From Alloascoidea hylecoeti (Eukaryota): a DNA stretch of 64,000 bases. The notes beneath the pieces were generated by a model. It did no database searches, had not been told where the DNA came from, and saw only the letters and a list, made by a program, of their open reading frames with translations. The position numbers and the translations under genes are program-made. Position 1 is the first letter of the stretch; every line of letters starts with the position of its first letter. Below, piece by piece: positions 3,227 through 54,699 of the stretch. The DNA lies in contig BCKZ01000017.1 of assembly GCA_001600815.1 (NCBI GenBank), positions 411,970 to 475,969 on the forward strand, in the 5' to 3' direction.

Positions 3227-5167
3227 CTAAATATAAGTAACTCTTGGTGTTCTTCTACTATTAATTGGTTGAAGAGCATACATAGAAGAAGCTCTATTAT
3301 ATTTTGAAACTAAATCATTTATTTTTTTACCATTTTTAACTAATAAAAATGAAAAAATTAATGCTAATAATGCCATTCTTTTTGCAATTAATCCAATACA
3401 TGATGATCCTTTTGATTTTATAATTCCAATGAATTCAAATGCTTTTCTCATGAATGTCATTAATGGATTTTTAACACTTGGTGAATCATAACTTGAATAA
3501 TCACTTGTACTATCATGTCTTTTATTAGGACGGATATTACTAGGATATGTATTATGTTCACCTCCACTACTACTATCAAAAGATGTATCTTCTTGACGAT
3601 ATGGGAAATGACCTTGTTGATTATGACTAATATACGATTGTGATGCATTCCAACCAGCATCCATTGGTGGTTGCTGCCATGAATTAGGGACTGGGAATTG
3701 GCTTGGCCCTGGGAATGGTCCTGGTCCTGCCATTCTATCGTTATCATGTTCAAAATCAAGATTTTGAGGCCGCTGAGGTGGCCCTGTGGGAGGTCCAGGA
3801 TGTGGGAAAGTTGTCTCATTTTTATCATAATTATTATCATTTTCAAAGTCAGGTTTTTGCTGTGGTCGTGGTGGTGGTGGTCCTGTAGGAGGTCCAGGAT
3901 GCGGGAATTTATTTTCAATTTGATCATCAAAATCATATATATCATGATCATTACGGGCAGTATCTTTAAAAGGTGCATCATCTGTTAAATCATGTTGTGA
4001 TTGATTTCTTGGTTCTGTATTAACTGAATTATAAACAGCATTTATAGCAGCAGCCCCTAAAGCAGTACCAAGACCTAAACTAACACTAGAAGTTTCATTT
4101 GAATGGGAAGCTTCAGGTTGCTGTTGATTATCTCTAAAAGCATATGGATCATTTTTAATAACATCTTCATGTAATAAAATAGGAGCTTGTAAAGTTGTTG
4201 GAATACTTTCAATTGTTGGTTGTGTATGAGGTACTGTTTCAATACTAACATTTGAATCATGATTTGTAGCTTGAGCAGATATAGTTAAATTTTGAATATA
4301 TTTTTTTTTAGTATCATCATCTAAAATTTTATTCGATTTAATAAAATCAATTGCTTCATCATTTAAACCTAATCTTAATAATACACTATAAATATATTTT
4401 TCAATCAATTTATTATAAAATTTAAAAGCTTTTTCATCAGTTTCTTTTAAATCTATAATTTTACCAGTTTCATTATCAGGAATTTCTAAAGATTTTAAAT
4501 AATCATATAATCTTTTTTTTAAAATTGTTTTTATAATTTCATTATTACAAAATCTTAATTGTAATGCAGTTATTGAATGAGCAATTTCAGGATGAATATG
4601 TTTTAAATCTCCACAAACTAAACATAATTGTTTCCATAATTCATCACTTGTTATTCTTGATATTAATTCTAATCTTTCATTTCTTGGCCAGATATCAGAT
4701 AATGGTACAGATTGAATATCTTCTTCTAAAGTTCGAGATTCTTCCATTAATGCCCCTGTAACTTTATTATACTGATTTTGAGTAATTGTAAATTTAGCTG
4801 CTATATCTAATAATGCAAAATATAGAGCCCACATTTTTAAAAAAGTCTTTGTTGATAATTGACCAGCAGAATAAACTAAAGGAGCATATTCTAAAATAGG
4901 TGTTAACAAATTCCATGATTGTATGAATTTTTTGGTTATACAATACTTAGCTGCAGTAGTATATAATTTATTAAGTCTTGTATCTTGTGATGTAGCAAGA
5001 GATGTTTGAGTGATTGAAGAATAAGAAGATAAATGAGTAGAAGTTGAACCTATTGTTGTACTAGAAGCAGCATTGGCACTGGAAAGATAAAAACTATCGG
5101 CAGCACTTGTACCGGCTATCATGTCTTGAGCAGACGTATCAGGATGTGTTGATGAGGTTGTACTCAT
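3227..5167 (-). CDS. PEX26: Pex26-like protein, copy 2 (Pro-rich linker)
   Basis: Paralogous to 618-2705: LYTTAAKY..KKFIQSWNLL, KMWALYFALLD, DIWP.NERL, IHPEIA, C-terminal TM and RVTYI end. The first ATG is at 5167; the track start at 5176 is TTG. Confidence 0.72.
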   Translation of the reverse strand: MSTTSSTHPDTSAQDMIAGTSAADSFYLSSANAASSTTIGSTSTHLSSYSSITQTSLATSQDTRLNKLYTTAAKYCITKKFIQSWNLLTPILEYAPLVYSAGQLSTKTFLKMWALYFALLDIAAKFTITQNQYNKVTGALMEESRTLEEDIQSVPLSDIWPRNERLELISRITSDELWKQLCLVCGDLKHIHPEIAHSITALQLRFCNNEIIKTILKKRLYDYLKSLEIPDNETGKIIDLKETDEKAFKFYNKLIEKYIYSVLLRLGLNDEAIDFIKSNKILDDDTKKKYIQNLTISAQATNHDSNVSIETVPHTQPTIESIPTTLQAPILLHEDVIKNDPYAFRDNQQQPEASHSNETSSVSLGLGTALGAAAINAVYNSVNTEPRNQSQHDLTDDAPFKDTARNDHDIYDFDDQIENKFPHPGPPTGPPPPRPQQKPDFENDNNYDKNETTFPHPGPPTGPPQRPQNLDFEHDNDRMAGPGPFPGPSQFPVPNSWQQPPMDAGWNASQSYISHNQQGHFPYRQEDTSFDSSSGGEHNTYPSNIRPNKRHDSTSDYSSYDSPSVKNPLMTFMRKAFEFIGIIKSKGSSCIGLIAKRMALLALIFSFLLVKNGKKINDLVSKYNRASSMYALQPINSRRTPRVTYI

Positions 5168-14652: not shown

Positions 14653-15795
14653 ATGAGAGGATTACTTTATTACGGCAACCACGATATTCGATATAGTGAA
14701 AATGTCCCAGACCCAAAGGTAAATGTTCCGGATGAAGTCATTATTGAGGTTGAATGGTGCGGTATTTGTGGTTCTGATTTACATGAATATTTATCAGGTC
14801 CAATCTTTTATCAAAATTTAGGAGAACCTGATAGAGTATCAGGTAAACAATTGCCTCATCCAATGGGTCATGAATTCGCTGGTATTATTAAAGAAATTGG
14901 TTCTGGTGTTACGAGTTTAAAAGTTGGAGATAGAGTATGTTTAGAAGCAACTACCCACTGTTTTGATAAGCATAGATGGATTGGCTCACCTCATGAACAT
15001 GATAAGCTATGTTCAATGTGTGCCTCAGGTTTAACAAATATTTGTGTTGATGCCGGTTTTACTGGTGTTTGTCCAGTTGGTGGAGGTTTAGCTACCTATG
15101 TTCAAGCACTTGATAAGCATTGTGTTAAGCTTCCTGATAATGTTCCTTCTGACATTGGTGCTCTTGTTGAACCAATTTCTGTTGCCTGGCATGCTATTAG
15201 AAAGTCAGGTCTTAAAAAAGGTGATACTGCTCTTGTTTTAGGTGCTGGTCCAATTGGTTTAGGTGCAATTCTTTCTTTGCAAGGCTTCGGAGCAGGTAAA
15301 ATTATTGTTTCTGAACCTGCTGCAGTTAGACGTGAGCAGGCTCTTAGTTTTGGTGCCGATGAAGTTATCAATCCACTCGACTCTAAAACTACAGAAGAGG
15401 TTGTTGAGAAATTAAGGAAACTAACACCCAACGGGGATGGTGTTCAATATTCATATGATTGTTCTGGTGTTAAAGCAACTTTTGATCTTGGAATTCATGG
15501 TGTTGCACCAGGCGGTAAGCATACAAACATCGCAATTTGGCCCAAGAAACCAATTGATTTCTGCCCATTGGATATAACTGTACGCGAAGCCAATATTTCA
15601 GGTAGTATGGGATATGTTAGACGTGACTTTGAAGAAGTTGTAGAAGCTTTATCAACTGGTGCTATTCCAATTGATCGTGCAAGACAGATGATCACGGGTA
15701 AGATTGATTGTAAGGATATTATAGAAAAGGGTTTCCAAGAACTTATTAATCACAAAGATACAAATGTTAAGATTTTAGTTAATTCCAAAATCTAA
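14653..15795 (+). CDS. BDH1: Zn-dependent (R,R)-2,3-butanediol dehydrogenase-like MDR enzyme
   Basis: CGICGSDLHEY, MGHEFAG, ALVEPISVAWHA and GAGPIG motifs; the N-terminus MRGLLYYGNHDIRY is typical of Bdh1/Bdh2. Confidence 0.9.
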   Translation: MRGLLYYGNHDIRYSENVPDPKVNVPDEVIIEVEWCGICGSDLHEYLSGPIFYQNLGEPDRVSGKQLPHPMGHEFAGIIKEIGSGVTSLKVGDRVCLEATTHCFDKHRWIGSPHEHDKLCSMCASGLTNICVDAGFTGVCPVGGGLATYVQALDKHCVKLPDNVPSDIGALVEPISVAWHAIRKSGLKKGDTALVLGAGPIGLGAILSLQGFGAGKIIVSEPAAVRREQALSFGADEVINPLDSKTTEEVVEKLRKLTPNGDGVQYSYDCSGVKATFDLGIHGVAPGGKHTNIAIWPKKPIDFCPLDITVREANISGSMGYVRRDFEEVVEALSTGAIPIDRARQMITGKIDCKDIIEKGFQELINHKDTNVKILVNSKI

Positions 15796-18418: not shown

Positions 18419-19474
18419 ATGTCTGAATTTGACGTTCCAGAAACCCAAAAGGCAGTTATCTTTGAAACCAATGGTGGTCCATTGGAATATAAAAATATCC
18501 CAGTTCCAACACCTGCCGCTGATGAGATTTTAATTCATGTTAAGTACTCCGGTGTTTGCCATACTGATTTACACGCATGGAAAGGTGATTGGCCTTTAGC
18601 AACTAAATTACCTTTAGTTGGTGGTCATGAAGGTGCCGGTGTCGTTGTCGGAATGGGTGCAAATGTTAAAAANTGGAAGATTGGNGATTATGCTGGCATT
18701 AAATGGTTAAATGGTTCCTGTTTATCNTGTGAATACTGCGAAAAGTCCAACGAGTCCAATTGTCCTGATGCCGTGTTGAGTGGATATACACATGATGGTT
18801 CTTTCCAACAATATGCTACAGCCAATGCTATTCATGCATCTAAATTGCCCAAGAATGTCAATCTTGCAGAGATTGCACCAGTTCTTTGTGCCGGTATTAC
18901 TGTCTACAAGGCATTGAAGACAGCTGGTTTAAGTGCAGGTGAATGGGTTGCCATTTCCGGTGCTGGTGGTGGTTTAGGTTCCCTTGCCATTCAATACGCT
19001 AAAGCAATGGGTTACAGAGTTTTAGCTATTGATGGTGGTGCAGAAAAGGGAGAATTCTGTAAATCCCTTGGAGCTGAATATTACGTTGACTTTACAAAGA
19101 CCAAGGATACAGTTTCTGAGATTATAAAGGCTACTAATGGTGGTCCACATGGTGTTATTAACGTTTCAGTTTCTGAAGCAGCTATTAACAGCTCGTGTGA
19201 ATATGTTCGACCAACAGGTTCGGTTGTCTTAGTTGGTATGCCAGCAGGTGCTAAAGTTACTTCCCCAGTTTTTTCACATGTTGTTAAATCAATTTCAATT
19301 AAGGGATCATATGTTGGTAACAGAGCCGATTCCGCTGAAGCTATTGATTTCTTTAGCCGTGGTTTAATCAAGTGTGCAATTAAGGTTGTTGGATTATCTG
19401 AATTACCAAAGATTTACGAATTGATGGAAGCTGGTCAAATTATTGGTAGATATGTTGTTGATACTGATAAATAA
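18419..19474 (+). CDS. ADH1: Cytosolic Zn-dependent alcohol dehydrogenase (Adh1/Adh2 type)
   Basis: ATG at 18419 ([15 protein letters not shown]); [20 protein letters not shown]...C structural Zn site, GRYVVDT. No presequence. TATATAAA about 85 bp upstream. ADH1 versus ADH2 cannot be resolved. Confidence 0.93.
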
Positions 19475-21808
19475 ACTGTTTATGATGTACGTTTCCCACC
19501 TTATGATAAATGTGGTGATGAAAGAATGATACAAATGTTTTTAACTTATTATATAACTAGAGAATAAATATTTATTGCTATTTGAAAATTAAGAGTTTAA
19601 TTGTAAAATTTAAGTTAAATCTTTAAATAAGATTTACTATTGAATGTATTTTCTATAACTTGAGTTATATATTGGAAGTAGCAGTTTATGAAATTAAGGG
19701 ATTCTGTCCCCAGATATCATAGATTCGTACTAAATTCTGGTAGAGTTTATTATGTTAATCATGATTATCAACAACATATAGAATACATTATAATGTATTA
19801 AAGTTCAAAATGCCTGTTCTCCAAGTTGCGCCAAAAAGCCAATCGACTCATTAGTGAATTGTTCTAAGAGTGTAATATATAGAATATCCAACATAATATT
19901 TAACAATATATACCAGAAACTTAAGGTTTTTTTAACTATCTAAGTTTGTATGTTCAGTTACATATATTTTTCAGAGACAATGAATTGAATTCGTAAAACC
20001 TTTCCCACCAAATCTAGATATATCCTATATTCGGTAACATCATTAATCTAATCTATGGATGAGGGAGACTTCATTATGATATATTGAATATTGTGGAAAT
20101 TTAAATGTTCTAACTGATTATTTCGTATGCATGTAGATATATTGTGGTAGGGATATAAGACGCATATATCTATGGGTTAGGAGCAGTTGCATAATAAAGG
20201 AATAAATAGGAACTTGAAATATGCTTGAATGAGGGGCTGGTGGGAAAATCTTCCACTAGATTCCTTTCTAAGTATCTTTTTGAAGGAAGAAATTTTGACC
20301 CCACTAGACTTACATATACTGGAATGAATATTATTTGAACAACTAATAAATATGTATAACTTATCAAATTTGCATTTGATGGGCAGGTAAGAATTTGAAG
20401 CGGCTATAAATAATGGTCCCTGTTTTCTATAAGTTCGCGTACGAGTGTGAATTTCAAGGATTAACCGTCAGATATAATAATTATTGGTTGCGAGATTGAT
20501 CAGCTCTTCACCGAAATATCATATAAACTACAGACACATGTACACGTACAAGTATTGCAATTATGATATCATGAAAAATAAATCAAACGGGACTTGACTA
20601 ATTATTATTGCAATAGCACTAAATGCCACTCATGGCCAATGATTTTCTTTGTGGCGTTCTTTCAACGGGATTTGAAATTTTGAAGTGATTCAGGTATAAA
20701 ATGCTCATGCACTTTTTTTAATTATATAAAAAAATATAGTTGAAGATTTCTGAATTTTCGTGAGAATTCTATATGCAAAATATTCATCAGACTTTCTCCA
20801 GCGCGAAATCTTAGTCTCTGATATGCATTTAAAATTCGGAGGCTACTTATGTATTTTCCAATGATCCTATTTTATCATACTATACCTATATGTGGAACTA
20901 TTAATTACAGTCTATCTAGCTACATATTTATAATGTTGAGTGTGGCATAGTTCATGGATAGGTATAGCGTTAGGGGAAAACATAATTATAAGGTATCTAT
21001 AAATTCCTATAGGCGTATAGATAATAAAAAGCGATCAATTAGTTACATTTAATGATATAATTTTGCTAACGCTTCACAGCTGTAATCGCTATAATCGTTA
21101 TCATCGGAATTCTAGTGCGACACAGATCGCAAATATAAACAAGCTTAAATTGTGTTTTAAAATCTTAACCAATTCCGGTATCTAAAATCCCGGAGTCGTA
21201 TAGTGTATGATCATTGCGATGATATAATGGTATTGCAATTTCCGAGCATGTTTAAATCTATGATTACAACGTAGTAGCAGAATCCAATCGCAACTCTTAA
21301 GATTGGTGATCACTTTTGCAAGCCCTAGGTGTTATTATTTATTGCAGAACTCCATCTTTTATATCACACAGTTCATTTATCTATTACTGTAATTTTCTTT
21401 CTTTTTCTCTCCATCTCTTCTAAATACCACTCCACCACCATACGTAAACTAGATTCCCACCAAAATTACCACAACACCTACTATTAAATATACCNATTTT
21501 CTTTATCAAAATCAATCGGTATACCTAATATTTATTTCGTAGTATTGTAGCATTGGTAGGGGGGTTTGGCTATATATCACGGATATATACATCCAAAATC
21601 TCGGGCCCACGGGCTCAAAAAGAGAAAGAAAAAATTTCTTAGTTAGTAAGAATAAGTGAATCCTTAGTGAGAACAGACTAATAATATTGCAAATGCATCT
21701 GGAAATGCCCTACTTCTATTCTACCTGCATGGCCTGGGATTCAGAATGACCCGGATAAACTATTTTACTCCAAGATCTCATTGATACAGTTTTTCCACTA
21801 TTGATAGT

Positions 21809-22167
21809 GCTATTTTCGAAAATAATTAGTTAAAGGTTTAGGTATTAATTAAGGTAACTCTATGCAATTCTACTTGAATGAATATTTATACACATTTCTT
21901 TAAATTAGTGATGGCAGTGGAACTTAATTAGCAATCCATCCGAAAATGATTAGTGTTCAGTGAGCGAGCTAATTAGCTAAAGAGTAAGAGTTGGTAATAG
22001 CTAATTAACTCCTCTCGGTACACTAATCATTTTCGTATGGACTGCTAATTAAGTTTCACTGCCATCACTAAATTAAAGAAATGTGTATAAATATTCATTC
22101 AAGTAGAATTGCATAGAGTTAACTTAATTAATACCCAAACCTTTCACTAATTATTCTCAAAAATAGC
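21809..22167. repeat. Foldback: about 170-bp inverted arms (21809-21979, 21998-22167) with an 18-nt loop
   Basis: Manual alignment shows about 14 differences including one 1-nt indel (about 92% identity). Confidence 0.95.
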
Positions 22168-22702
22168 GTTAGAAATCCTGAAGAATCAGAAACATATATG
22201 CTCGGTTTCAGTATTGACATTTTCACTGGATACGGGGCGAAACAAGATTGAAGCGGAAATCTCCAAACATCAATATTGACGCATGATCGTTCGGTTTATG
22301 AAGTCAATCGTATACGACTATTCGTACTGTCATAATTATTACTTATATAAAATGAACCCACTTAAACTTTTAGATATGGTAACATAATATTTCAGCTAGA
22401 ATCACGCTTTTATTACAAAGTAACATATAGAAATATAAATTAAAGATATATAAAAACTTAAATTTGAATATATATAAAAAGTGTCAATAAAAAAATGACA
22501 TATGCTCCAATCAATAATAAGTATAGAAAACTAAAGTGGACCTTAGAATTATCAGTTCATGGTGGCTATGACATAATAGTAATGATTGTAGTTGATGATC
22601 TCGAGTGTGATTATGATCATAAAGAATATGTGATTAAATCAGATTTTGACGGGATCAATTCCAACCGAAANTTTTCATTTTCAACTGGGAAGCTGCAGCT
22701 GT

Positions 22703-22894
22703 CTAGCAGGAAGAACAAGAACCACATTTGCAATCCTTTGGACAAGAGCAATCTTTAGGATCTTTACAAGTTCCAACACAAGGAGGTTGAGTTTCAGCTG
22801 ACTTAGAGCATGAGGAGCAAGCATTGCAAGTACAATCGTTTTGGCAAGTGCAAGTTTCTGGACTAGTGCAAGACCCGACACAAGGAGAAACCAT
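22703..22894 (-). CDS. Metallothionein, copy A (63 aa, 16 Cys)
   Basis: MVSPCVGSCTSPETCTCQNDCTCNACSSC-SKSAETQ-PPCVGTCKDPKDCSCPKDCKCGSCSSC; CxC/CxxC motifs; no aromatic residues. Confidence 0.9.
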   Translation of the reverse strand: MVSPCVGSCTSPETCTCQNDCTCNACSSCSKSAETQPPCVGTCKDPKDCSCPKDCKCGSCSSC

Positions 22895-24192
22895 TATTAA
22901 TTATTAATAAGAATAAAGATGTAGATAGTTATAAAAGTTTATTGAGAAGCTTCAATTGGATATAATCCGAATGATATATGAATTGATGAGAATTTAATGG
23001 TGTGTTATAAGGGGGAATTGACAAGTATTTATATTTTTCTCATTCTATAGTTAAAATATAAAACTACTAATTCTGCATTAATGCCTACATAGCCATTTTA
23101 GGAAATCGAGGAGTGTTTTCCTTTATAAGCAGCCTGAAAGTTTATTCTTAAGCAACACTATTGCAGAAGTTGATTGCATGTTTGCATTCTAAGTGAAGTG
23201 TTTATCTTATATGTCATAATTTCAAGTTAAATATATGCAGATCAAGCTCTATTCATAACGGGAGCATCAGTTCATTCAGATGTAAGATCGTAACTAATAA
23301 AGCTGCAACTATTCATTATCTGTTTTCCTATGTTACTGGCAAAATAACTGATAATAAATTGAACATCATTAATATTTATTAATAAGCCTACTGGCCCTAC
23401 TCCCAGTTATAATTATCGCGATCGATATCTAATTTCGTTAGTATAACCTTATATTACACTTCTAAATTCCATATGGGTATATAATCCTGATGGCTGTCAC
23501 ATAATGTATTAAATTAAGTTGACATGAAAGGTTTATGGTACCATTTGTTCCAAAATATCAGTTTATAGTTCATGTTGTAGAGATTGTTTTCAATTCTGTG
23601 ATGATTTGGATCTAGACTGAGATACCAGGAATATAATTAAATATATTATTACATTTCACAGCCAATTGGGAGCAAAGACAAAAGTCTGAAAGTTCGGATA
23701 TTAGCACTATGATTAGAAAATTAAAATTATATGCAAGCATAGCTTTGAATAATGTAATGTGATTGTGCTGTTTAATAAATTTAAATACATGTTTCTATAT
23801 ATCAATTAATTCAACTATAGTCTAGACTCTATAGCTATCTTTAAATTTAGTAGTATGATTAATATATATTTAGTATATATTTAATTTTATTTACTTAGAA
23901 AACAGTAGAACATGCAACTTCTGCAATAGTGTTGCTTAAGAATAAACTTTCAGGCTGCTTATAAAGGAAAACACTCCTCGATTTCCTAAAATGGCTATGT
24001 AGGCATTAATGCAGAATTAGTAGTTTTATATTTTAACTATAGAATGAGAAAAATATAAATACTTGTCAATTCCCCCTTATAACACACCATTAAATTCTCA
24101 TCAATTCATATATCATTCGGATTATATCCAATTGAAGCTTCTCAATAAACTTTTATAACTATCTACATCTTTATTCTTATTAATAATTAATA

Positions 24193-24384
24193 ATGGTTTC
24201 TCCTTGTGTCGGGTCTTGCACTAGTCCAGAAACTTGCACTTGCCAAAACGATTGTACTTGCAATGCTTGCTCCTCATGCTCTAAGTCAGCTGAAACTCAA
24301 CCTCCTTGTGTTGGAACTTGTAAAGATCCTAAAGATTGCTCTTGTCCAAAGGATTGCAAATGTGGTTCTTGTTCTTCCTGCTAG
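24193..24384 (+). CDS. Metallothionein, copy B (identical to copy A)
   Basis: Identical protein in divergent orientation; TATAAATA about 140 bp upstream. Confidence 0.9.
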   Translation: MVSPCVGSCTSPETCTCQNDCTCNACSSCSKSAETQPPCVGTCKDPKDCSCPKDCKCGSCSSC

Positions 24385-25262
24385 ACAGCTGCAGCTTCCC
24401 AGTTGAAAATGAAAANTTTCGGTTGGAATTGATCCCGTCAAAATCTGATTTAATCACATATTCTTTATGATCATAATCACACTCGAGATCATCAACTACA
24501 ATCATTACTATTATGTCATAGCCACCATGAACTGATTATTCTTTTAGCTGCTGTATTATAACCTTTTATTAAAAGCTTAATTATGTGAGTTATTATGTTT
24601 TCTTATGGTGCTAATATACGCGCATTTTGTGCTTGTACCACAATACTGCAGAAACACCACCAAAGTTCAACTTATTGGTAATTTTACTCCCGTATCTTCT
24701 TAGATTTATCTAGTAGTTTAATAGAATTTTTAGGATGGGCAAAGCCATTATATTTTTTAAAAAGCATTGGCTGTACCTATAGGAGGAGATTTAGAAATCA
24801 GTACCTATGTGTAAAAGAAACGGAATATCAATTTATTTGGGCCAGTGCTAAACATAGCTTTCGTTAATAATAAAAAAAAGACACGATCCATTTGAATTTA
24901 ATTATGACTCCAACTTCAATGCATGTTGGAGCAAATAATTTATATAGTTTTATAGTCTATAGAATCTATACTAATCCTATTAAGTTGGCTGTATTAATTG
25001 AATTATAAAACTCTACAATTGATAGAAACCTAAATTAATTACATTATTTTCATTCATTATTATTCAGACAGCATAACTTACTAAAAAAATTATAAAAGCT
25101 GAATACAAAACTTAAAAAGAACTTCAAAAAACTTAAAAAAAAATTAAAAAAATTAAAAAAAGCTTACATTTTTAAGGCTCTTCATTGAAAGTTCAACCAC
25201 AATGAAAACCTTTTCAATTATTCATTCATTATACTATCTGTTTATCGTTATGACCATCATCC

Positions 25263-26465
25263 TTATTTATCGGTATCAACAACATATCTACCAATAATTT
25301 GACCAGCTTCCATCAATTCGTAAATCTTTGGTAATTCAGATAATCCAACAACCTTAATTGGACATTTAATTAAGCCTCGACTAAAGAAATCAATAGCTTC
25401 AGCGGAATCGGCTCTGTTACCAACATATGATCCCTTAATTGAAATTGATTTAACAACATGTGAAAAAACTGGGGAAGTAACTTTAGCACCTGCTGGCATA
25501 CCAACTAAGACAACCGAACCTGTTGGTCGAACATATTCACACGAGCTGTTAATAGCTGCTTCAGAAACTGAAACGTTAATAACACCATGTGGACCACCAT
25601 TAGTAGCCTTTATAATCTCAGAAACTGTATCCTTGGTCTTTGTAAAGTCAACGTAATATTCAGCTCCAAGGGATTTACAGAATTCTCCCTTTTCTGCACC
25701 ACCATCAATAGCTAAAACTCTGTAACCCATTGCTTTAGCGTATTGAATGGCAAGGGAACCTAAACCACCACCAGCACCGGAAATGGCAACCCATTCACCT
25801 GCACTTAAACCAGCTGTCTTCAATGCCTTGTAGACAGTAATACCGGCACAAAGAACTGGTGCAATCTCTGCAAGATTGACATTCTTGGGCAATTTAGATG
25901 CATGAATAGCATTGGCTGTAGCATATTGTTGGAAAGAACCATCATGTGTATATCCACTCAACACGGCATCAGGACAATTGGACTCGTTGGACTTTTCGCA
26001 GTATTCACANGATAAACAGGAACCATTTAACCATTTAATGCCAGCATAATCNCCAATCTTCCANTTTTTAACATTTGCACCCATTCCGACAACGACACCG
26101 GCACCTTCATGACCACCAACTAAAGGTAATTTAGTTGCTAAAGGCCAATCACCTTTCCATGCGTGTAAATCAGTATGGCAAACACCGGAGTACTTAACAT
26201 GAATTAAAATCTCATCAGCGGCAGGTGTTGGAACTGGGATATTTTTATATTCCAATGGACCACCATTGGTCTCAAAGATAACTGCCTTTTGAGTTTTTGG
26301 AATATTTTCAGCCATTGAAGCAAATAATCTTCTAGTTCGTAGATTTGTTGTATTCGGATTTCTATATGAGAAAGACCTCTGAAGAGAACACAATAAAGCC
26401 GGTGCAAGGACAGGAGCCTGAGTTTTATATGTTTGTAGTAACGTCCGAGAAATAATAGGAAGCAT
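25263..26465 (-). CDS. ADH3: Mitochondrial alcohol dehydrogenase (Adh3 type)
   Basis: Same ADH core preceded by an Arg/Ser/Leu-rich extension of about 50 aa with no acidic residues ([14 protein letters not shown]...LRTRRLFAS), typical of a mitochondrial presequence. Confidence 0.92.
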
Positions 26466-28602: not shown

Positions 28603-29440
28603 TTAAAAGAATATAAATAGATGGTATTTTTCTATTAAATAATTATAAGAATTATCAAGTGAAATTAATAAAGAATTAAAGAGTAATAATGAGTTCTTGG
28701 ATAGCAAGAATTCAATAACTTCTGGGACTTTACTATAACTTATACCTTCTTTTTTTGGCTTCGAAAATGTTTTCATTTCTTCAATCATTTCTTTTATTTA
28801 ATCTTCTGTAATACAAGGAGCGATTCTAACGATTTTCGTTAAGCCAGTGAAGCTCCTTGTCAAAGACGTTTTTATATTTTCAGATAGATCACTGATCAGT
28901 ATGTTATTGAGGCTAATCTGCCGTCAACGGCTAAAAGATTATGAATTGCAGCCACCAATTTTCGAGTCACAACTAATACATCAAATGAAATTAACCTTGG
29001 TAGTAATTAAAATTAGCTGGTATTACGGTTGATTTTATTTGATGTATTAGTTGTGACTCAAAAATTGGTGGCTGCAAATTAGCCTCAGTAAAATCATTCA
29101 GGTTGTCATCTGAAAATTGAGTTAATTTCTTCTTAATCATGTCCTCCATAACTTGGGTCTTTAGTTGCCTCATCTTTTTTTCCCTTGTCATTAAGCAAAC
29201 TCTGATTAACCGCAAGATTTTTTCCATTTATGAGTTTATCAAGTTGTAATTCACCTTTTGGACCTTTTCTATTCTTATCCGGGATGGTTTTCTTATCCTG
29301 TATCTGGTTAATTGCAAGGACAACTGGCAACTGTATTGTTATATCAAAAATAAGATGTGATATTTCTTTTACTTAAGACCAATTTTTTGCTCCTCTAAGT
29401 TATACACCAGCAAAGTTATCCTTTTGAAATTTATCTGATT
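28603..29440 (-). mobile_element. Degenerate ORF relic, possibly a Ty1/copia gag remnant
   Basis: Stop-interrupted protein-like frames: KDNFAGV*LRGAKNWS*VKEISHLIF... and ...LLISLDNSYNYLIEKY, loosely like the gag L-x-G-x-N-[YW] and LL-x-SL-x3-Y motifs. Confidence 0.3.
28946..29077. repeat. 51-bp inverted repeat (28946-28996, 29027-29077) with a 30-nt loop
   Basis: 3 mismatches. The peptide LQPPIFESQLIHQ appears on both strands in the ORF track. Confidence 0.93.
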
Positions 29441-47234: not shown

Positions 47235-47907
47235 ATGTTTTCAACTACAGGATTAAATAAATTGGAACGAAAAGCTCAAAATATAAATCGCAACCTTCTG
47301 CAACCGGTACCACGCAAGTACCACTTACTTCCAAATAAAAACATCAAAAAACAGCAACCCTTGGATGCAGAGCTTGATATTATTATTAAAAATGAAAAAC
47401 CGGTTTATATTACAAGTGATACTATTGAAGGTTTTGTTAACCTTATTCCTAATACAACATTTACTTATGGTGAATTTACGATATCTTTGGAAGCAGAGTT
47501 CACTACCGAAGCTTATAAACTAGATCCAAAGAATTAAAAGAGACGAAATTGTACAACGAATGCTAGGGTACTGTTGTTAAAAATGATAGATGATAAAATT
47601 CCTGGATCATATTTCGCTAAAGAAAATGGAAAATTTAGGTTTAGCCGGTGTGAAGTATACATTACCATTCTGTTTTGTTATGCCTTAAAAGTTATTTGCC
47701 AATGACTTATCAATGAACTTCAAGTTTGTATCTCGGCGTTCAAGTGACGTCAATATCAATGAAGAAGGAAAATGGCAGGAACCAGTACCAATTGCAAAAA
47801 AATCTAGATGGCTGAAAATCGATCTGGGTGGTGCTAATAAGAATAAAAGTGCCATTACTATTTACCCATGGAAAAAGATGAAACTTCAAATTTATTTTTT
47901 ATTCTAA
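47235..47907 (+). pseudogene. Arrestin-N/Bul1-like pseudogene fragment
   Basis: LDIIIKNEKPVYITSDTIEGFVNL...FTISLEA resembles an arrestin-N start. In-frame TAA at 47535-47537 where the mirrored copy has GAA. Confidence 0.5.
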
Positions 47908-48193
47908 TTACAATATAATGCATACATTGGACGGTATACCTTTCTAGTACAAGTGATTTATAATTGTATATTGAATATTATAATTTGGTGATTAAAAAAC
48001 AAAAACCAGGGTTAGAATGACGTCAATCTATAAATTTATATCTATATAAATGATTGTATATCAGTCAAATAATTATAGGTTAAATCACCGTTTTGATTTT
48101 AATTTCAATTTCAATTTCCCATTTCCCATTTCCCATTTTCTACTTTACTTATTGTTTCTAGTATAGCTTGCGAAATCTAATTATTAGCGTAAT

Positions 48194-50068
48194 TTATATA
48201 TTATTGTAACTTGTGAGCTTATCCTTTAAACTCATCAGAGTCATGATCCAAGCCATAATTAATGCAACAATCCCAACCGAAACATTCAAAGAAAACATTG
48301 CATCTAAACCTTTATATATCAATGCTTCAACTGTTTGACCATTAGATTCCATAAAAACAAGTCCTCCACAAATCAAACAAAAAGAAACAACTAATTCAGT
48401 AAATGGTCGTGATGGGGATCCATCAGCATTAGGTGTTTTAATAAACATTAAAATAATCGAACTTAATCGTACAATAGCACCAATAGATAACATATAACCC
48501 CATTGCATATGTATCATTGTTGATAATTTATACATTTGTTCATGTTGAGACATTAAAACACCAGTCCAAAATACAGTAAAAGCTGGGAATGGATTTGGAG
48601 AAAATCCAATTGTACAACTTTTTATTGATCTCTCATTTCTTGAGTTGAGTTCAATATGTCCTTCACTAAAATATGCACGTTTCCTCCAATTTGATAATTT
48701 TGATTCAGTTAAAATACCACAAAGTCCACATCCAAAATACATAAATGCAATTGAAGCATGTTGTAAATCTCTTGGACGCCAAACACCATCTTCATTACCT
48801 AAATGTTCCATCCAAATATTTGTACTACCATAAAAAAATATAAGAAATGATTCAATAAATTCAACAGAAATCATTCCTTCTGGTAATAAAAAATTTTTGA
48901 TCTTTGAAATTAATATATTAAATTTTGATTTTTTAACTGTTAATTTTGATTTTTCTTCAATTGCATATCTATTCCATGCCCATCCTCGATTTTGAAAAGC
49001 ACCACAATATCTAAGTAATGAAAATACTCCATACCAAAAGAAAACTCCTCCTTTAATGAAATGTGCTAATAAATTAAATACTTTCTTTTGTTGTCCCATT
49101 AATGTAACTGTTGCAATTCCAGTAAGAATATAACCAAATCCAAACATTGCTAATGGAACATTTAATATATTAAATAAAGCATTTGAAATTGTTGAGGTAT
49201 GAGTAATGATTTTAGCAATAGTTTGATTTTTCATTAACTTATAAATAAATTTCTCTTGTAATTTAAACGCTTTGCCCCTGTTTTGATTCGCAGTCATTGT
49301 ATCAATCGAGGAATCTCTGCTATGCATATGGTATTGTTCCAGATCAATATCGTTAGCAAGATTTGGATGATCTCCGTATAGTGTAGACATTGCGGAGTCC
49401 GTTCTATTTAGTTCATTCGAATTCATATCATGCTCATCATCCCTATCCATCACAGCGGTTTCTACATTCATCGTTTGTAAGGGAGTAAATTCAATATCGG
49501 AACAATCCATATTATTTGAATCATGTTGTTTTGCCCAATTAGACACAGTTTTCAGTATTGCGGATGTATAATGTATAAGACCTAGGAATAATAAAGCCCA
49601 GGAAAGTTTGGAGTAAGCATTGTTTGGATATAAATTAGGTGCTGATGCTCCATAAACGGCTAGATTTAATAATGCGACGATGATGACGACATAATGAATG
49701 GTTAATCCGAGTAAATATAAAGCCGATTTTGCGTTGTTTAAAACAAGGGTGATTGGGTAAAGGATTATAAATGAGATTGCTATGAGTGACATATGTGTAT
49801 AAAGAGCAGATTTATTACCTCGTGGATGATTTAGGAACGTCGTGACATTGTAAGCCTCCCAATGTTCTCGCTCTTCTGGTGATAAATCCGGCTGTTCGAG
49901 AATTGGTTTTCCGTGGTGCGACATATCATTCATTTGGCTCATTCGAGGATATAATTGTAGAGAATCTGATCTTTCACGTGCCAGCAGGGGTTGGGTCGGT
50001 ATGGCTAGCGCCGAGAATGTGAGAGGGATTGCTCCGAGGAGGAATAACAAACTAACCCTAGGAATCAT
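48194..50068 (-). CDS. Ytp1/DUF2427-family multi-pass membrane protein (YCR061W-like)
   Basis: Signal peptide; HG.PIL...L.P....WE.YN.TT; VFNLLAHFIKGGVFFWYG; N.WMEHL; DLQHASIAFM; PNPFPAF; IHMQWG. Confidence 0.88.
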   Translation of the reverse strand: MIPRVSLLFLLGAIPLTFSALAIPTQPLLARERSDSLQLYPRMSQMNDMSHHGKPILEQPDLSPEEREHWEAYNVTTFLNHPRGNKSALYTHMSLIAISFIILYPITLVLNNAKSALYLLGLTIHYVVIIVALLNLAVYGASAPNLYPNNAYSKLSWALLFLGLIHYTSAILKTVSNWAKQHDSNNMDCSDIEFTPLQTMNVETAVMDRDDEHDMNSNELNRTDSAMSTLYGDHPNLANDIDLEQYHMHSRDSSIDTMTANQNRGKAFKLQEKFIYKLMKNQTIAKIITHTSTISNALFNILNVPLAMFGFGYILTGIATVTLMGQQKKVFNLLAHFIKGGVFFWYGVFSLLRYCGAFQNRGWAWNRYAIEEKSKLTVKKSKFNILISKIKNFLLPEGMISVEFIESFLIFFYGSTNIWMEHLGNEDGVWRPRDLQHASIAFMYFGCGLCGILTESKLSNWRKRAYFSEGHIELNSRNERSIKSCTIGFSPNPFPAFTVFWTGVLMSQHEQMYKLSTMIHMQWGYMLSIGAIVRLSSIILMFIKTPNADGSPSRPFTELVVSFCLICGGLVFMESNGQTVEALIYKGLDAMFSLNVSVGIVALIMAWIMTLMSLKDKLTSYNNI

Positions 50069-52133
50069 TTTTGGCCAAAATTGGAGGATGTGAATTAAAA
50101 AGGAGAAGGTTGGGGATTTTCCCAGTCTTATATAAATTTGGGGACTCAGAGAAACAAGATTGATCCAGAATTTATATTATAATAAAAGGATTAAGGTTCG
50201 GTTGTGATTGGTCATCCCTGACATTCCATGCCTATCAAAGGTAATAGCATCACAGAAAACCGAGGTCAATTCGGTGGAAATGCCCATGATCATGCAACTC
50301 ATACGGACATTCCGGAACGCTACTGTTGAATTGTTACTCCAAATTGTCTCCAATATTAGGTTGATCCGGAACTCACGGAATCGGAGGCTGGATAATAATT
50401 GCCGAGTGATGTTATTCCTCCAATCAAACCACTCATAAACGTAATATCCGAAATCACCGGGTCTACATGTGGCTGGTGAGCTACAATGGGAAATAGTGTG
50501 GCGCGATCAGCCATAAACGTTAATCGTAAGATTTTTCTAAGAGCAAATAAATATCAAAAAAGGATACATCTTATTTGTCTGATTTGTGATTGATTGCTGT
50601 ACGTTTTATTCCAGGCTACGTGAAATGTTATTAATCGATTATTGATCGGTATCCTTATTAACTCCCTGTCTAGAGTTAATTGGAACGTTAACTATAATAA
50701 CCCATAATTAAACACTTTCATTTCGAAAAATCCGTATATTTCTCTAATTTGTGATATCGATGGTGTTACAATTGCATATACCGCTTAGCTCCGCGACTGA
50801 TCCGTACTTATTATAGGTCTATATTAGTAATATAATTACGGCCATATCAAACTTCAAACTACATATAATATAATTGAGATTAACTATATCTAGATCTAAC
50901 GATCTAGCTAGAGTCAACGTTATATAATTCGAAGTTACTTCTTGTGATTTCAGACATCATTGGGCATGATTATATTAGAGAGTTAATAGAGACGTTTATG
51001 ATCAAACATCATTATCAAGTTTACTGATATACTGCATAATTAGTCTGGAAGTGACATATATGCTTATTTGTCACAATTGCCAGATTTAACGGAAAATATC
51101 GCAAATATTAACGACACGGCTGACATTTATTGGAGTTTATTAATCCTAGAAAACTATCACATATAAGGGTAATTAGATGCATATGATCCGTGTCACGTGT
51201 AGCATAGATAACCTCCATTGGTGCCCAAAAACAGTCTCTTCTCAAAAGTTGCTCCATTTTAGACCGCTATATGCGTACCAGAGGGGGCGGAGTTTGTGCC
51301 GCTAAATCCATAACGGCTATTATTTCCAAAACAAAGACAGAACCCAAGTTAAACACCGCCCAAGTGGCAACACAAAAGCAATATTTCTATCACTACCGAC
51401 TTCATTCAATACTAAATCCGCTACATCCTTACTCACTAGATAATTATATATTTGATCCCCTTTATTATAATCATTTAAGCTTGCAATTGTTGTTCAAAAT
51501 TGGCTCATCTTTCCTTTTGCTACGTATACGTATATTATGACGGTTATTGCCAAAGGTGTATATAATCATATATTTTAGAGTCTTAATACTTGATATAAGC
51601 TGTAATACATTACTTATACTGCAATTGTCTAATTGTGTCAATTATGATCGATATCGATATCAACCACATGTTATAGCTACTAATATACGCTTATGTAAGT
51701 AGATCAATGAATATGACATTTGCAATTGATCCTCCAAAGTTTACATAATGTAAATGCTAAGAAGAAAAGTTGTTGCAGTTGAAAAAGGGATCTAATCAAT
51801 TAAGCTTGAAGTGAAATAGTTATATAGTTTTCAAGTTTTTGTGATACATATTAGAATTAAAAATAGAAATTATAAAGATATTAATAATAGCTATAATCTA
51901 TCAATAATTGACCTCTAATTTTAATCCCCTTTGTTTATTCTTACGTTTTTCAAGTTCTGCTGCTGTTTCATTTGTATTAAATATATTCTCTCTCTCTGAA
52001 ATTGCAAGTTTAACCCATATCCTTTAGTTTTAACAGCAGTTAAGAAGCAAAATGTATGTGTTGATTTGTCTCTTGTTTAGCATTTATTTGTCCATTTGTT
52101 AATAATTCCACATCCCTTAATTATTACGGAAAA

Positions 52134-52759
52134 ATGATTCCTAGGGTTAGTCTGTTATTCCTCCTCAGAGCAATCCATCTCACATTCTTGGCGCTGGCTA
52201 TACTGTCACAACGCCAACTGTTACATACAAGATCGGTTTCTCTTCAATTATATCCTCTAATAGGTCAAATGTGTTGGATATATATTACACTCTTAGAACA
52301 GTTCACTAAAGTGTCGATTGGCTTTTTGGCGCAACTGGGAGAACAGGCACTTTGAACTTTAACAAAATGAATGATATATCACATCACGGAAAACCAATCT
52401 TCGAACAGCCGGATTTACCACCAGAAGAGCGAGAATACTGAGAGGCTTACAATGTCACAAAGTTCCTAAATAATCCACAGGGTATTAAATCTACTCTTAT
52501 TTATAATCTAATGAAAAATCAAACTATTGCTAAAATCATTACTCATACATCAACAATTTTAAGTGCAATATTTGGGTTTGGTTATATTCTTACTGGAATT
52601 GCAACAGTTACATTAATAGGACAACAAAAGAAAGTATTTAATTTATTAGCACATTTCATTAAAGGACGAGTTTTCTTTTGGTATGGAGTATTTTCATTAC
52701 TTAGATATTGTGGTGCTTTTCAAAATCGAGGATGGGCATGGAATAGATATGCAATTGAA
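52134..52759 (+). pseudogene. Inverted, internally deleted pseudogene of the 48194-50068 gene
   Basis: MIPRVSLLFLL start; TGG>TGA at 52439; a jump to MKNQTIAK; ends at NRYAIE. Confidence 0.92.
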
Positions 52760-52889
52760 TCACTTATTATCTAGAAAACTGTGCAATGTGTGGATTACAT
52801 TGTAATTGAGGTTTCACTAAAACATAAAAAGGTACTTCAAAAGATATATCCCTTTTAATTAACTGTGGAGAAGAAGTATCTATAATTTT

Positions 52890-54169
52890 ATTATTGCTAG
52901 CACCACACCGACGACAACCATCTGAGTCTAGATTGTTTTGCAATTGATGTATTGGATTTTGTTACCTTATAAGCAACAAGGGATCTACATTCTCTTAATG
53001 GGCTTAAAGATCTTTTTGGAGTAATATTGTGAATACTAAAGTAGATATTACAAGTAATAATCGGTGGTTCGTTCCTGTAATACTCCATCGATTGATATAG
53101 GGACTATATACAAATTTCACAGGAAATATAAACATTTTTAGTTCCAACATGATTCGAGTTCTCGTTTAGAGCTGAAGATTTTGATGAGTTATTAATACTT
53201 GATTCTGGTGAATTTATGTATAATATCTAACATCATTGACTTAGACTGATCCAGAGGATGCGTTTTATAAGATATCAATTACCCTGTTTCTGAGTGTATG
53301 TCAGCCAAAATATGCCTATTTTCGCGCCAGGAAGGAGGATATGAAGGTACAAAGTTAAATTTGTTCATAGCTTTCAAAGATGCATTAGAGAGTTTCTTTT
53401 GTCTTTTTCTTGTTTTAGAATTTAACAGAAATATAGTCTTATTATCAATTGATGCTTTAATATAATGAGTAATACAAATACCACGGGGAGAAATAAGTGA
53501 TTCAAAATATCTCATATTAGTAAGGTCATCACCAAAGTTCCAAGCAGTAAAGTGAAAGTTTTTAAGAGCCAATGAGATCCGGACGACAGTCATCTTAAGC
53601 ATTTGAACGGATGTTTTTCTCAACTTTAATTTATGTGAATCACGAAAGATAGAATTACGAGACCCACTAACGAATTTCATTCCGCAATGATAGAAGGAAT
53701 TTCCAAAACTAGAAGAAAGCTTGCGATCAATATGTTTTGAAAAATAATTAATTTCCTTGGTTTTGGTAACTTTTAAGGCATAACAAAACAGAATGGTAAT
53801 GTATACTTCACACCGGCTAAACCTAAATTTTCCATTTTCTTTAGCGAAATATGATCCAGGAATTTTATCATCTATCATTTTTAACAACAGTACCCTAGCA
53901 TTCGTTGTACAATTTCGTCTTTTTTCATTCTTTGGATCTAGTTTATAAGCTTCGGTAGTGAACTCTGCTTCCAAAGATATCGTAAATTCACCATAAGTAA
54001 ATGTTGTATTAGAGATAAGGTTAACAAAACCTTCAATAGTATGTTTGAGTGATTTGTCCTCGGAGGGTAGAGTATAAATAGAGAATTGAGTACACTCACA
54101 AGCAATTGAGTTACTGGTTAAAGCAATAAGGAAGTTGAAAAAGAACGTGCATAGGTGCTGCACCTTCAC
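52890..54169 (-). pseudogene. Arrestin/Bul1-like ORF (296 codons, GTG start) with a degenerate downstream continuation; mirror partner of 47235-47907
   Basis: The 276-bp core 53767-54042 is the reverse complement of 47419-47694 (about 4 differences seen). Weaker similarity IAKQSR..RWL versus IAKKSRWL lies downstream. No ATG start. Confidence 0.5.
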
Positions 54170-54531
54170 TTGAGTTTAACCCGATATGAATTTTACGGTG
54201 GTAGATGAAACAAAGTATCAAAAACATTAAAATATTCCTAAGTTCCTTAAAAAGGAAATAAAATTCTTTAATCGAAGAATTGGATAAAATCAGATATGGA
54301 GAAATCAACAAATGTGTGGTAACTCGCAGAAACACGCTCAGACTGAATATTAAAGTTCACGAATTTTGTGTTCAGATAAATCTATACCTGGAAATTCCAA
54401 TTTGAATTTATTATTACTTGGTTAAGTTGATGATATATAAATGAAAATGTTATATGGTTGTACGGATACAAAAATCTATCATCTTTTGTTCTCACACTGT
54501 ACAAGTCGATCTTCTGTATGATTATGCATTG

Positions 54532-54699
54532 TTCCACTCTGAATTCGCCATTTTGTAGACAGGATTTCGCCACTCGGTAATGAGGGGCTTACGATCGGGT
54601 TACATAGTATACATGTACTCCTATAGTAGGTCATGCAGCCACTCGGTTCAGGTACTTGTGTCAAAATCCTTTCTACAAAATGGCGAATTCAGAGTGGAA
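54532..54699. repeat. 168-bp element with 36-bp terminal inverted repeats (54532-54567, 54664-54699)
   Basis: TTCCACTCTGAATTCGCCATTTTGTAGA(C/A)AGGATTT with 1 mismatch; the spacer holds GCCACTCGGT twice. Confidence 0.9.

Follow-up and report, generated by a model that had tools for sequence, protein, structure and literature searches.

Nested inverted pairs of alcohol dehydrogenase and metallothionein-like genes in Alloascoidea hylecoeti and their probable homogenisation by gene conversion

In a 64-kb window of the Alloascoidea hylecoeti genome (64,000 nucleotides, the whole stretch of DNA analysed here), two alcohol dehydrogenase (ADH) genes face each other across about 6 kb that contain a second inverted gene pair, this one metallothionein-like (MT). 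Such nesting raises the question of whether the locus is an invertible cassette, as a first-pass annotation had suggested, or a pair of ordinary gene duplications that have stayed nearly identical for other reasons. We approached it by asking what the repeats consist of, whether they are real, what could keep their arms alike and how they compare with inverted repeats known to invert.

Two gene pairs and the inserts between them

The outer pair comprises the following features:

18419–19474, plus strand: ADH-L, zinc alcohol dehydrogenase of the yeast ADH1/2 type, ORF of 351 aa
18435–19474, plus strand: left arm of the outer inverted repeat (from the repeat alignment), coding sequence only
19357–19376 (partner 25361–25380), plus strand: difference island, 6 of the 10 arm differences in 20 bp
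25263–26465, minus strand: ADH-R, the same enzyme core plus an N-terminal extension, ORF of 400 aa
25263–26302, minus strand: right arm of the outer inverted repeat, with Ns at 26010, 26052 and 26064
26316–26465, minus strand: presequence-like extension of ADH-R, 50 codons, ending RRLFAS and followed by an in-frame Met

Both ORFs contain the Pfam domains ADH_N and ADH_zinc_N, and the closest homologues of ADH-L are yeast ADHs, with identities of up to 82%. ADH-L is of the cytosolic type, without an N-terminal extension, and has Ala at residue 320, whereas ADH-R has Pro at the equivalent position; the KCAIK/KCPIK difference originally annotated is confirmed by comparison of the arms. The first 49 residues of the ADH-R extension include seven R/K and no D/E, a composition that suits a basic presequence, and we infer that the extension may direct ADH-R to mitochondria. 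The in-frame second Met could also allow a cytosolic form of ADH-R. Several yeast ADH homologues likewise have an extension followed by a second Met, and the extension is absent from the four next-closest ADHs of the same genome. In a quick ADH tree, which serves for grouping only, ADH-R groups with ADH-L (99) and with the C15 ADH of the same genome (87).

The ADH arms are 1040 nt each and differ at 10 positions (99% identity). An 890-bp inverted repeat formed by the two ADH coding regions had been described in the first pass, and both the coordinates and the raised read depth bear it out: the longest run covers 890 nt (18467–19356/25381–26270). The figure holds as a run, but not as fully certain identity, since N:N is counted as a match in this and the other ADH and MT runs called perfect; the longest ADH run free of uncertain bases is 629 nt (18728–19356). 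Identity ends at the coding boundaries, and the flanks, including the two 3′ regions, are unrelated: their alignments scored 22 and 21, where shuffled sequences averaged 23 and 26. The ADH promoters lie outside the repeat. Five of the six island differences are synonymous and the sixth is A320/P, and clustering to this degree was reached in 0 of 200,000 simulations; we read the island as a probable unconverted remnant. Confinement of the repeat to coding sequence, the lack of relation between its flanks and the clustering of its differences point to old paralogs that were probably homogenised by gene conversion.

The inner pair is arranged as follows:

22545–23172, minus strand: left arm of the inner inverted repeat, with an N (22671), the 3′ flank, MT-L and ~280 bp of promoter sequence
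22703–22894, minus strand: MT-L, metallothionein-like ORF, 63 aa with 16 Cys
23173–23914, no strand: unique spacer of 742 bp between the divergent MT promoters
23915–24542, plus strand: right arm of the inner inverted repeat; N at 24416
23949–23957, plus strand: putative Ace1-like element TTCAGGCTG in the right MT arm
24193–24384, plus strand: MT-R, metallothionein-like ORF, identical to MT-L

One N pair aside, the MT arms share an identical run of 622 nt (22551–23172/23915–24536), and the inner 622-bp inverted repeat holding MT genes is as first described, both in its coordinates and in the contigs across its junctions. The ORFs have the traits of metallothioneins, being small and Cys-rich, with Cys-X-Cys motifs and without aromatic residues. 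They matched no Pfam family, and a search for protein homologues found none; the top Atlas match was 'Metallothionein' (0.82), which we take as no more than a lead. The putative Ace1-like element of the right arm occurs ~245 bp upstream of all four MT copies (the two here and two on C6), and TATAAATA lies 139 bp ahead of the MT-R ATG. We treat the ORFs as metallothionein-like. Because the TATA box and the Ace1-like element both lie inside the identical arms, an inner flip would leave both proximal MT promoters unchanged.

Another MT palindrome is present in the same genome (G000:C6, locus L009 1284–2840). As in the one described here, its arms are near-perfect (99.6% over 724 nt) and hold two identical MT genes of 63 aa in divergent orientation, with TATA and Ace1-like elements at matching distances before both copies. 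Unlike the present pair, it has a spacer of ~0.1 kb rather than 742 bp, longer arms, no surrounding ADH and zero Ns. Identity between the two MT loci is only 77–78%, with 16 of 16 Cys kept alongside 11 amino-acid and 15 synonymous codon differences.

Three further inserts lie within the cassette:

19796–19893, minus strand: dispersed high-copy element of 98 bp, solo-LTR-like, starting TGTTGG
21381–21634, no strand: insert with the ninth N of the window (21495)
21787–22167, no strand: degenerate MITE-like foldback that has dispersed relatives

The 98-bp element has many genome copies and a near-perfect 5-bp flanking duplication, and contigs from the public runs described below have loose ends at both of its edges (19796 and 19893); it is a passenger. 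The second insert matches a sequence that reaches 79–113 times single-copy depth in the runs, yet has one copy in the assembly, and it gave no match to three rRNA-like loci. The foldback has arms of ~170 nt (21809–21979/21998–22167) that are 87–89% alike, an intact left end (TA followed by CAGTT) and a diverged right end; the left end matches 10 other places, and C32 holds a similar foldback. Earlier annotation of a foldback with a 170-bp stem was right about its existence and arm length; it is a separate repeat-like insert, a passenger that belongs to neither gene pair. Rfam gave three sub-threshold matches at chance level, and a tRNA scan of the 64-kb window found none. The only Cys-rich or recognisable ORFs within the cassette are the two identical MT genes. 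A centromere reading of the locus was rejected, the arms being intact genes.

Mirrored Ns and the repeats in public reads

The window contains exactly nine Ns. Six are mirrored about the ADH axis (18673/26064, 18685/26052 and 18727/26010), with 18673, 18685 and 18727 each at a third codon position, and two are mirrored about the MT axis (22671/24416). A recount of positions upheld the earlier statement that eight of the nine are mirrored and that the ninth falls inside the cassette, although this last N is unrelated to the gene pairs and sits in a separate insert. The first-pass annotation had itself offered repeat ambiguity as an alternative source of the Ns, and we prefer that alternative, as an unrelated repeat pair on C17 has mirrored Ns too. 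Assembler ambiguity is the best reading of the mirrored Ns: the arms probably still differ at these sites, and the assembler was unable to tell which base belonged to which arm. Such an assembler limit agrees less well with one N cluster on C17, since a resolved indel lies just 91 bp away from it.

Public reads were available as contigs from four runs (X1–X4) belonging to three studies, and the contig check covers 18728–26009. Across the four runs, depth is 1.5–1.9 times single-copy in the ADH arms and 1.25–2.5 times single-copy in the MT arms, and the inner junctions were recovered in every run; in X1, X2 and X3, an 802-nt contig links the MT spacer to both MT arms. Because arm depth is raised and inner junction contigs occur in 4 of 4 runs, both nested repeats are real two-copy sequences. 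The left version of the ADH island is found in X2 and X4 contigs and the right version in X1 and X3 contigs. These are short-read contigs, none of which runs from unique DNA through an arm into the unique DNA beyond it, and orientation is beyond their resolution. Four listed contig joints, which lie at dispersed repeats or MT arms and whose shorter sides have just 20–59 letters, were discounted as evidence of orientation. None of the data showed an inversion.

Gene conversion and competing explanations

We consider it probable that the locus consists of two independent inverted paralog pairs, one nested in the other, that are kept near-identical by non-allelic gene conversion and have the potential for rare, passive inversion. 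A break in one arm would be repaired from the other arm, 0.7–6 kb off. Conversion would in this way have imposed one sequence on the cytosolic ADH and on the mature region of the ADH with the presequence; the promoters and 3′ ends, and the presequence itself, would meanwhile have diverged. A small share of repairs would end as crossovers, inverting the enclosed DNA, and isomers might arise over evolutionary time as a by-product of little effect, altering one residue, the 3′ ends and the position of the MT pair. We infer homogenisation over time from a single genome, and the MT pair, taken alone, can also be accounted for by a recent inverted duplication. With the repeats real, the geometry does permit up to four isomers by homologous recombination, as originally proposed. 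The outcome then predicted for an outer flip also stands, in that A320 and Pro would be exchanged and the 3′ ends swapped, with promoters and presequence staying in place.

Patchily identical neighbouring pairs are common in this genome. An 800-kb sample contained four inverted and four direct near-identical neighbouring pairs (at least 200 bp at 95% identity or above), and a rough extrapolation suggests about a hundred comparable inverted pairs genome-wide. A convergent pair on C1, for example, has ~99.5% identity over some 940 bp and then diverges clearly.

A history of one-off recent events, with a single ADH copy or conversion, a single MT inverted duplication, no continuing homogenisation and one orientation, seems unlikely. 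The MT arms carry promoter and 3′ flank, as in a fresh duplication, and in none of the four runs do the long contigs listed for the unique segments carry alternative letters, so that a second state is not hinted at. However, the two MT loci are each near-identical internally but diverged from one another, ADH identity ends at the coding boundaries yet retains a diverged island, and patchy identity is found again at other loci. It is more doubtful still that the cassette flips frequently and without regulation, so that clonal cultures would mix isomers as a standing property of 0.6–0.9 kb arms a few kb apart. The identical runs measure 629, 206 and 622 nt, lengths that suffice for homologous recombination, and a mix of isomers is compatible with short-read contigs. 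Against such flipping, the assembly forms one gap-free path through the cassette, and the same extrapolation gives about a hundred comparable inverted pairs in the genome; the available passages of PMC9731477 describe the larger, 4.2-kb FF repeats of Saccharomyces as stable on laboratory timescales. We also find it improbable, to a slightly greater degree, that the true divergence of the arms exceeds what the assembly shows, or that the assembler duplicated one copy. The mirrored Ns would fit such an artefact, as would the restriction of resolved differences to the vicinity of repeat edges: in 14 of 14 near-identical pair alignments, they form a chain to an alignment end in which no step exceeds 113 bp (15 pair comparisons were made, and 2 without a 200-bp alignment were dropped). 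Because differences chain to the alignment ends in this manner, the assembly cannot resolve central ones, and some identity may be inflated, a caveat that applies to our preferred reading as well. On the other side, all four runs, which come from three studies, have raised depth on both arms and unique junction contigs; over 18728–19356 and its mirror no alternative letters are listed, though the same contigs choose different branches at the island; and the sole cluster of alternative letters within an MT arm, found in X4, agrees with the C6 paralog at 7 of its 10 sites.

A programmed flip/flop, in which carbon source or metal would trigger arm recombination, swap 3′ ends between the cytosolic and the mitochondrial ADH and so tune their expression, is very improbable. 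We hold just as little credence in a condition-responsive inversion switch outside mating type that, if true, would exchange ADH 3′ ends together with a residue, move the MT pair and tune fermentation versus respiration, or metal tolerance. The geometry permits a switch, and the two ADH 3′ regions are unrelated. Nevertheless, neither promoter nor gene is shifted between an on and an off position, and the protein change amounts to one residue. A motif search for a Puf3-like element found none in either ADH 3′ region. A dedicated or regulated flip system is unsupported: the symmetric MT pair is the only enclosed coding DNA, the MT promoters would be unchanged and comparable pairs are common in the genome. 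As regards site-specific inversion by Flp or a tyrosine recombinase, a profile search of the genome with PF00589 gave no match, with a control matched in 14 of 14 cases, as did one with PF05202, whose control matched in 0 of 14. These blank searches leave room for a switch, because no dedicated recombinase was found in Ogataea polymorpha either, as far as the passages of PMC5720833 show.

Known inverted pairs and switches

A metagenome scan for relatives returned 79 loci, the closest at 78%. No ADH or MT inversion system was found in literature searched by title and abstract opening, a search outside which most subscription papers fall, and none appears in the available passages of PMC8150848.

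Yarrowia lipolytica would have two loci that each hold a head-to-head pair of MT genes, four genes in all, an arrangement for which literature searches gave no confirmation; its likeness to the present genome serves as a lead only, and we know of no within-pair identity there. Among 36 yeast-type ADH loci (25 of them at least 8 kb), one, JXWR01006501.1 (L115), has a second ADH. As here, a presequence-bearing and a cytosolic ADH are inverted with respect to each other, ~4.5 kb apart, with high-identity patches. Unlike here, the pair is divergent rather than convergent, with 87% identity over the available 295 bp. The quick tree places its cytosolic gene with an ADH of Wickerhamomyces anomalus, so that this is most likely an independent case.

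The present locus would add to the examples of concerted evolution among inverted gene pairs, and is of mild interest for its cytosolic and presequence-bearing ADHs with a common enzyme core and separate promoters and 3′ ends. Its significance would be much greater only if flipping were frequent or regulated, and nothing here indicates either.

Judging from the available passages of Hanson et al. 2017 (PMC5720833), the mating-type switch of O. polymorpha resembles this locus in having an inverted repeat, possible homologous inversion and no known dedicated recombinase. Its 2-kb identical repeat contains truncated gene pieces, and its induced flip exchanges MATa and MATalpha between centromere-silenced and expressed positions. 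In contrast, the arms here are intact ORFs, with 10 resolved differences and three N sites in ADH, no gene is placed on or off, and flipping is not known to be induced. Closer to our preferred reading is the FF region of Saccharomyces chromosome XIV, where, in the passages available from Salzberg et al. 2022 (PMC9731477), inversion is proposed as a by-product of homogenisation by gene conversion, ~4% crossovers are cited and 0 flips were seen in ~53,800 mitoses and 950 meioses. Both loci have inverted repeats that are near-identical and built of intact pairs of protein-coding genes, and in both the orientation is beyond short reads. The FF arms are 4.2 kb long, include intergenic DNA, enclose 24 kb with 15 genes and are documented in both orientations, whereas the arms here measure 1.04 and 0.62 kb, are nested and are known in one assembled orientation, the ADH arm being coding-only and pairing a cytosolic with a presequence-bearing isoform. 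The locus offers a small setting, accessible to PCR, in which to ask whether FF-type inversion toggling happens outside Saccharomyces.

Anatomy of the nested repeats

Self-comparison of the window, which is AT-rich budding-yeast sequence on contig C17 of a 24.8-Mb assembly in 136 contigs, reproduced the nesting of ADH genes, metallothionein-like (MT) genes and foldback described in the first-pass annotation:

18435-19474 / 25263-26302: ADH arms (outer), 1040 nt with 10 differences, 5788 nt apart
22551-23172 / 23915-24536: MT arms (inner), a 622-nt identical run
21787-22167: foldback, arms of about 170 nt, 87-89% alike
22703-22894, minus strand: MT-L ORF, 63 aa, 16 Cys
24193-24384, plus strand: MT-R ORF, 63 aa, 16 Cys

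Paired Ns were scored as matches, so the ADH run free of uncertain bases is at most 629 nt. The mirroring of the Ns also held: six of the nine are symmetric around the ADH axis and a further pair around the MT axis, leaving a single one at 21495; the three Ns in each ADH gene all fall at third codon positions (AAN, GGN, TCN).

The enzymes encoded by ADH-L (351 aa) and ADH-R (400 aa) both belong to the yeast ADH1/2 type. The N-terminal extension of ADH-R is basic, lacks acidic residues and precedes an in-frame Met; the genome's four next-closest ADHs have no extension. Located 2.6 kb upstream of ADH-L, at 14653-15795, is a third zinc dehydrogenase gene (380 aa), only distantly related to the ADH pair. 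The MT ORFs had no Pfam family match and no database homologue; their metallothionein-like label is suggested by composition, conserved Cys and an upstream element that we take to be Ace1-like.

The foldback and a short element at 19796-19893 appear to be passengers, the former from a dispersed, degenerate MITE-like family and the latter solo-LTR-like, labels that we assigned from their end motifs. The solo-LTR-like element is very short (93-98 bp) and present in many copies; the copy at 52272-52364 begins with TG, ends with CA and is flanked by a perfect 5-bp duplication. Both foldback arms carry a 34-bp segment missing from both arms of a relative on contig C32 (L021:1211-1586), which suggests copying between the two arms of an element. 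In two smaller foldbacks (28946-29077 and 54529-54702) the arms measure 51 and 45 nt and show 91-94% complementarity. Elsewhere in the window, 47419-54042 holds a second, decayed nested inverted duplication, with 276-nt arms (47419-47694 / 53767-54042) that are 98.6% alike and fragments of a YTP1-like gene (48194-50068) inverted at 52130-52759, 83-98% alike. Diverged tandem paralogs occupy 618-2705 and 3227-5167, one with a weak Pex26 match below cut-off.

Identity between the arms and the origin of the Ns

The two ADH genes are alike from codon 7 to the stop codon, and their flanks, upstream and downstream, align no better than shuffled sequence. Six of the 10 differences, five of them synonymous, fall within 20 bp, a cluster that none of 200000 simulations produced. 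A fresh duplication is expected to leave similar flanks and scattered differences; the unlike flanks and clustered differences point instead to old paralogs whose cores would have been overwritten by gene conversion. The genome's four MT copies form two divergent pairs, and the second pair, on contig C6, is also a near-perfect palindrome; the two MT arms of one locus are 99.6-100% alike, against 77-78% for arms of different loci.

Similar pairs occur elsewhere. In an 800-kb sample we found four inverted arm pairs (three or four loci) and four direct pairs of at least 200 bp, at least 95% alike and within 30 kb, a density that, scaled roughly to the whole genome, corresponds to inverted pairs numbering on the order of 100. 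A convergent paralog pair on contig C1 (L051:9341-10000, L052:1-4628) matches at about 99.5% along some 940 bp, beyond which the two copies have clearly diverged; this is the same patchy pattern as in the ADH genes and a clear conversion-tract pattern. Also on C1, divergent small secreted-type genes (L065:1247-3544) are 99.6% alike over 463 bp. Among 36 yeast-type ADH loci from metagenomes, one had a second, inverted ADH: in JXWR01006501.1 (L115:3-5972), from another lineage, presequence-bearing and cytosolic genes are divergent, 4.5 kb apart and 87% alike over 295 bp.

We compared the window over 18728-26009, a stretch inside the outer junctions and the ADH Ns, with short-read contigs from four public DNA runs (X1-X4; three studies), one or two of which may be the assembly source. 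Relative to the median of six unique contigs per run, depth was 1.5-1.9x on a collapsed 459-nt ADH contig and 1.25-2.5x on a collapsed 379-nt MT contig. In all four runs, contigs without differing letters run from ADH-L into its inner flank, connect the foldback with MT-L, and extend from MT-R as far as ADH-R; the MT spacer and both MT arms share one contig in three runs, and of this contig only the right half appears among the X4 pieces listed. In none of the four runs does a single short-read contig span an arm from unique DNA to unique DNA. The run contigs drop bubbles: the difference cluster that includes the A320/P site (KCAIK or KCPIK) has its left version in X2 and X4 and its right version in X1 and X3; since X2 and X3 come from one sample, both versions exist. 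Along 18728-19356 and along its mirror the listed contigs show no differing letters, which speaks against hidden arm differences in that stretch. The X4 MT arm has a cluster of differing letters, with seven of 10 sites matching the C6 paralog.

The 800 kb, tiled over four contigs in five blocks at arbitrary coordinates (one adjoining the window), contained 14 short N runs, nine of which received closer repeat checks. Seven lie inside a repeat found within the sample: six are mirrored across a further inverted pair on C17, and the seventh belongs to a family with dozens of copies. Two on contig C3 adjoin, but fall outside, a dispersed repeat match. In all 14 alignments of near-identical pairs, every resolved difference can be reached from an alignment end (in some cases a tile border) through a series of such differences spaced at most 113 bp apart. 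The nearest resolved difference is 206 bp from the ADH Ns and 120 bp from the MT Ns; one C17 N has an indel only 91 bp away. We infer that at the Ns the assembler could not decide which copy a base belonged to, and that the arms most likely do differ at these sites. The Ns give no evidence of flipping, and the ambiguity that the first-pass annotation had offered as an alternative is favoured, mirrored Ns being present in another C17 inverted pair as well. The ninth N lies in an insert (21381-21634) that is present once in the assembly yet matches a contig whose depth in the four runs is 79-113x the single-copy level; rDNA spacer, mitochondrial DNA and plasmid DNA are possible sources.

Predicted consequences of an inversion and comparison with known systems

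As had been proposed, a crossover in the 890-nt ADH run would swap one residue and the 3' ends and leave promoters and presequence unmoved. The residue, at the A320/P site, is Pro in 104 of 120 homologues and Ala in one. Neither ADH 3' region contains a Puf3-like motif. Apart from the two identical MTs, the enclosed DNA has no recognisable gene. The TATA boxes and Ace1-like elements of both MTs fall within the arms, so the proposed reversal of the MT upstream spacer by an inner flip would apply to its distal part only.

We consider it probable that the locus comprises two homogenised inverted gene pairs with a passive, rare potential for inversion, the most likely of the readings weighed. A one-off duplication or conversion would also yield near-identical arms, but the unlike ADH flanks are not those of a fresh duplication, and we regard it as unlikely. 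Frequent unregulated flipping, for which the long inverted arms would be a substrate and the Ns offer no evidence, is quite improbable. That the arms differ and their identity is a consensus artefact is more doubtful still: the listed contigs showed no differing letters in the ADH stretch, and the X4 cluster in an MT arm matches the C6 paralog at seven of 10 sites. Least credible is a programmed switch. A genome search found no match to the tyrosine recombinase family PF00589, and a literature search, with most subscription papers outside its reach, turned up no description of an inversion system built on ADH or MT genes.

The Ogataea switch is induced, shifts MAT genes between positions where they are silenced or expressed, and has no known recombinase (PMC5720833); recombinase negatives are thus not decisive against a switch here. 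The invertible-cassette proposal was right about the repeats and the outcome of an outer flip, but the ADH/MT locus lacks the Ogataea placement of silenced and expressed genes. Among known systems the Saccharomyces FF region comes nearest. There, conversion homogenises gene-bearing inverted repeats and can incidentally invert the DNA between them; crossovers are cited for about 4% of conversions, and no flip was seen in some 53,800 mitoses and 950 meioses (PMC9731477). Regions of this kind occur in both orientations in nature. On anatomical grounds, the locus described here resembles the FF region.
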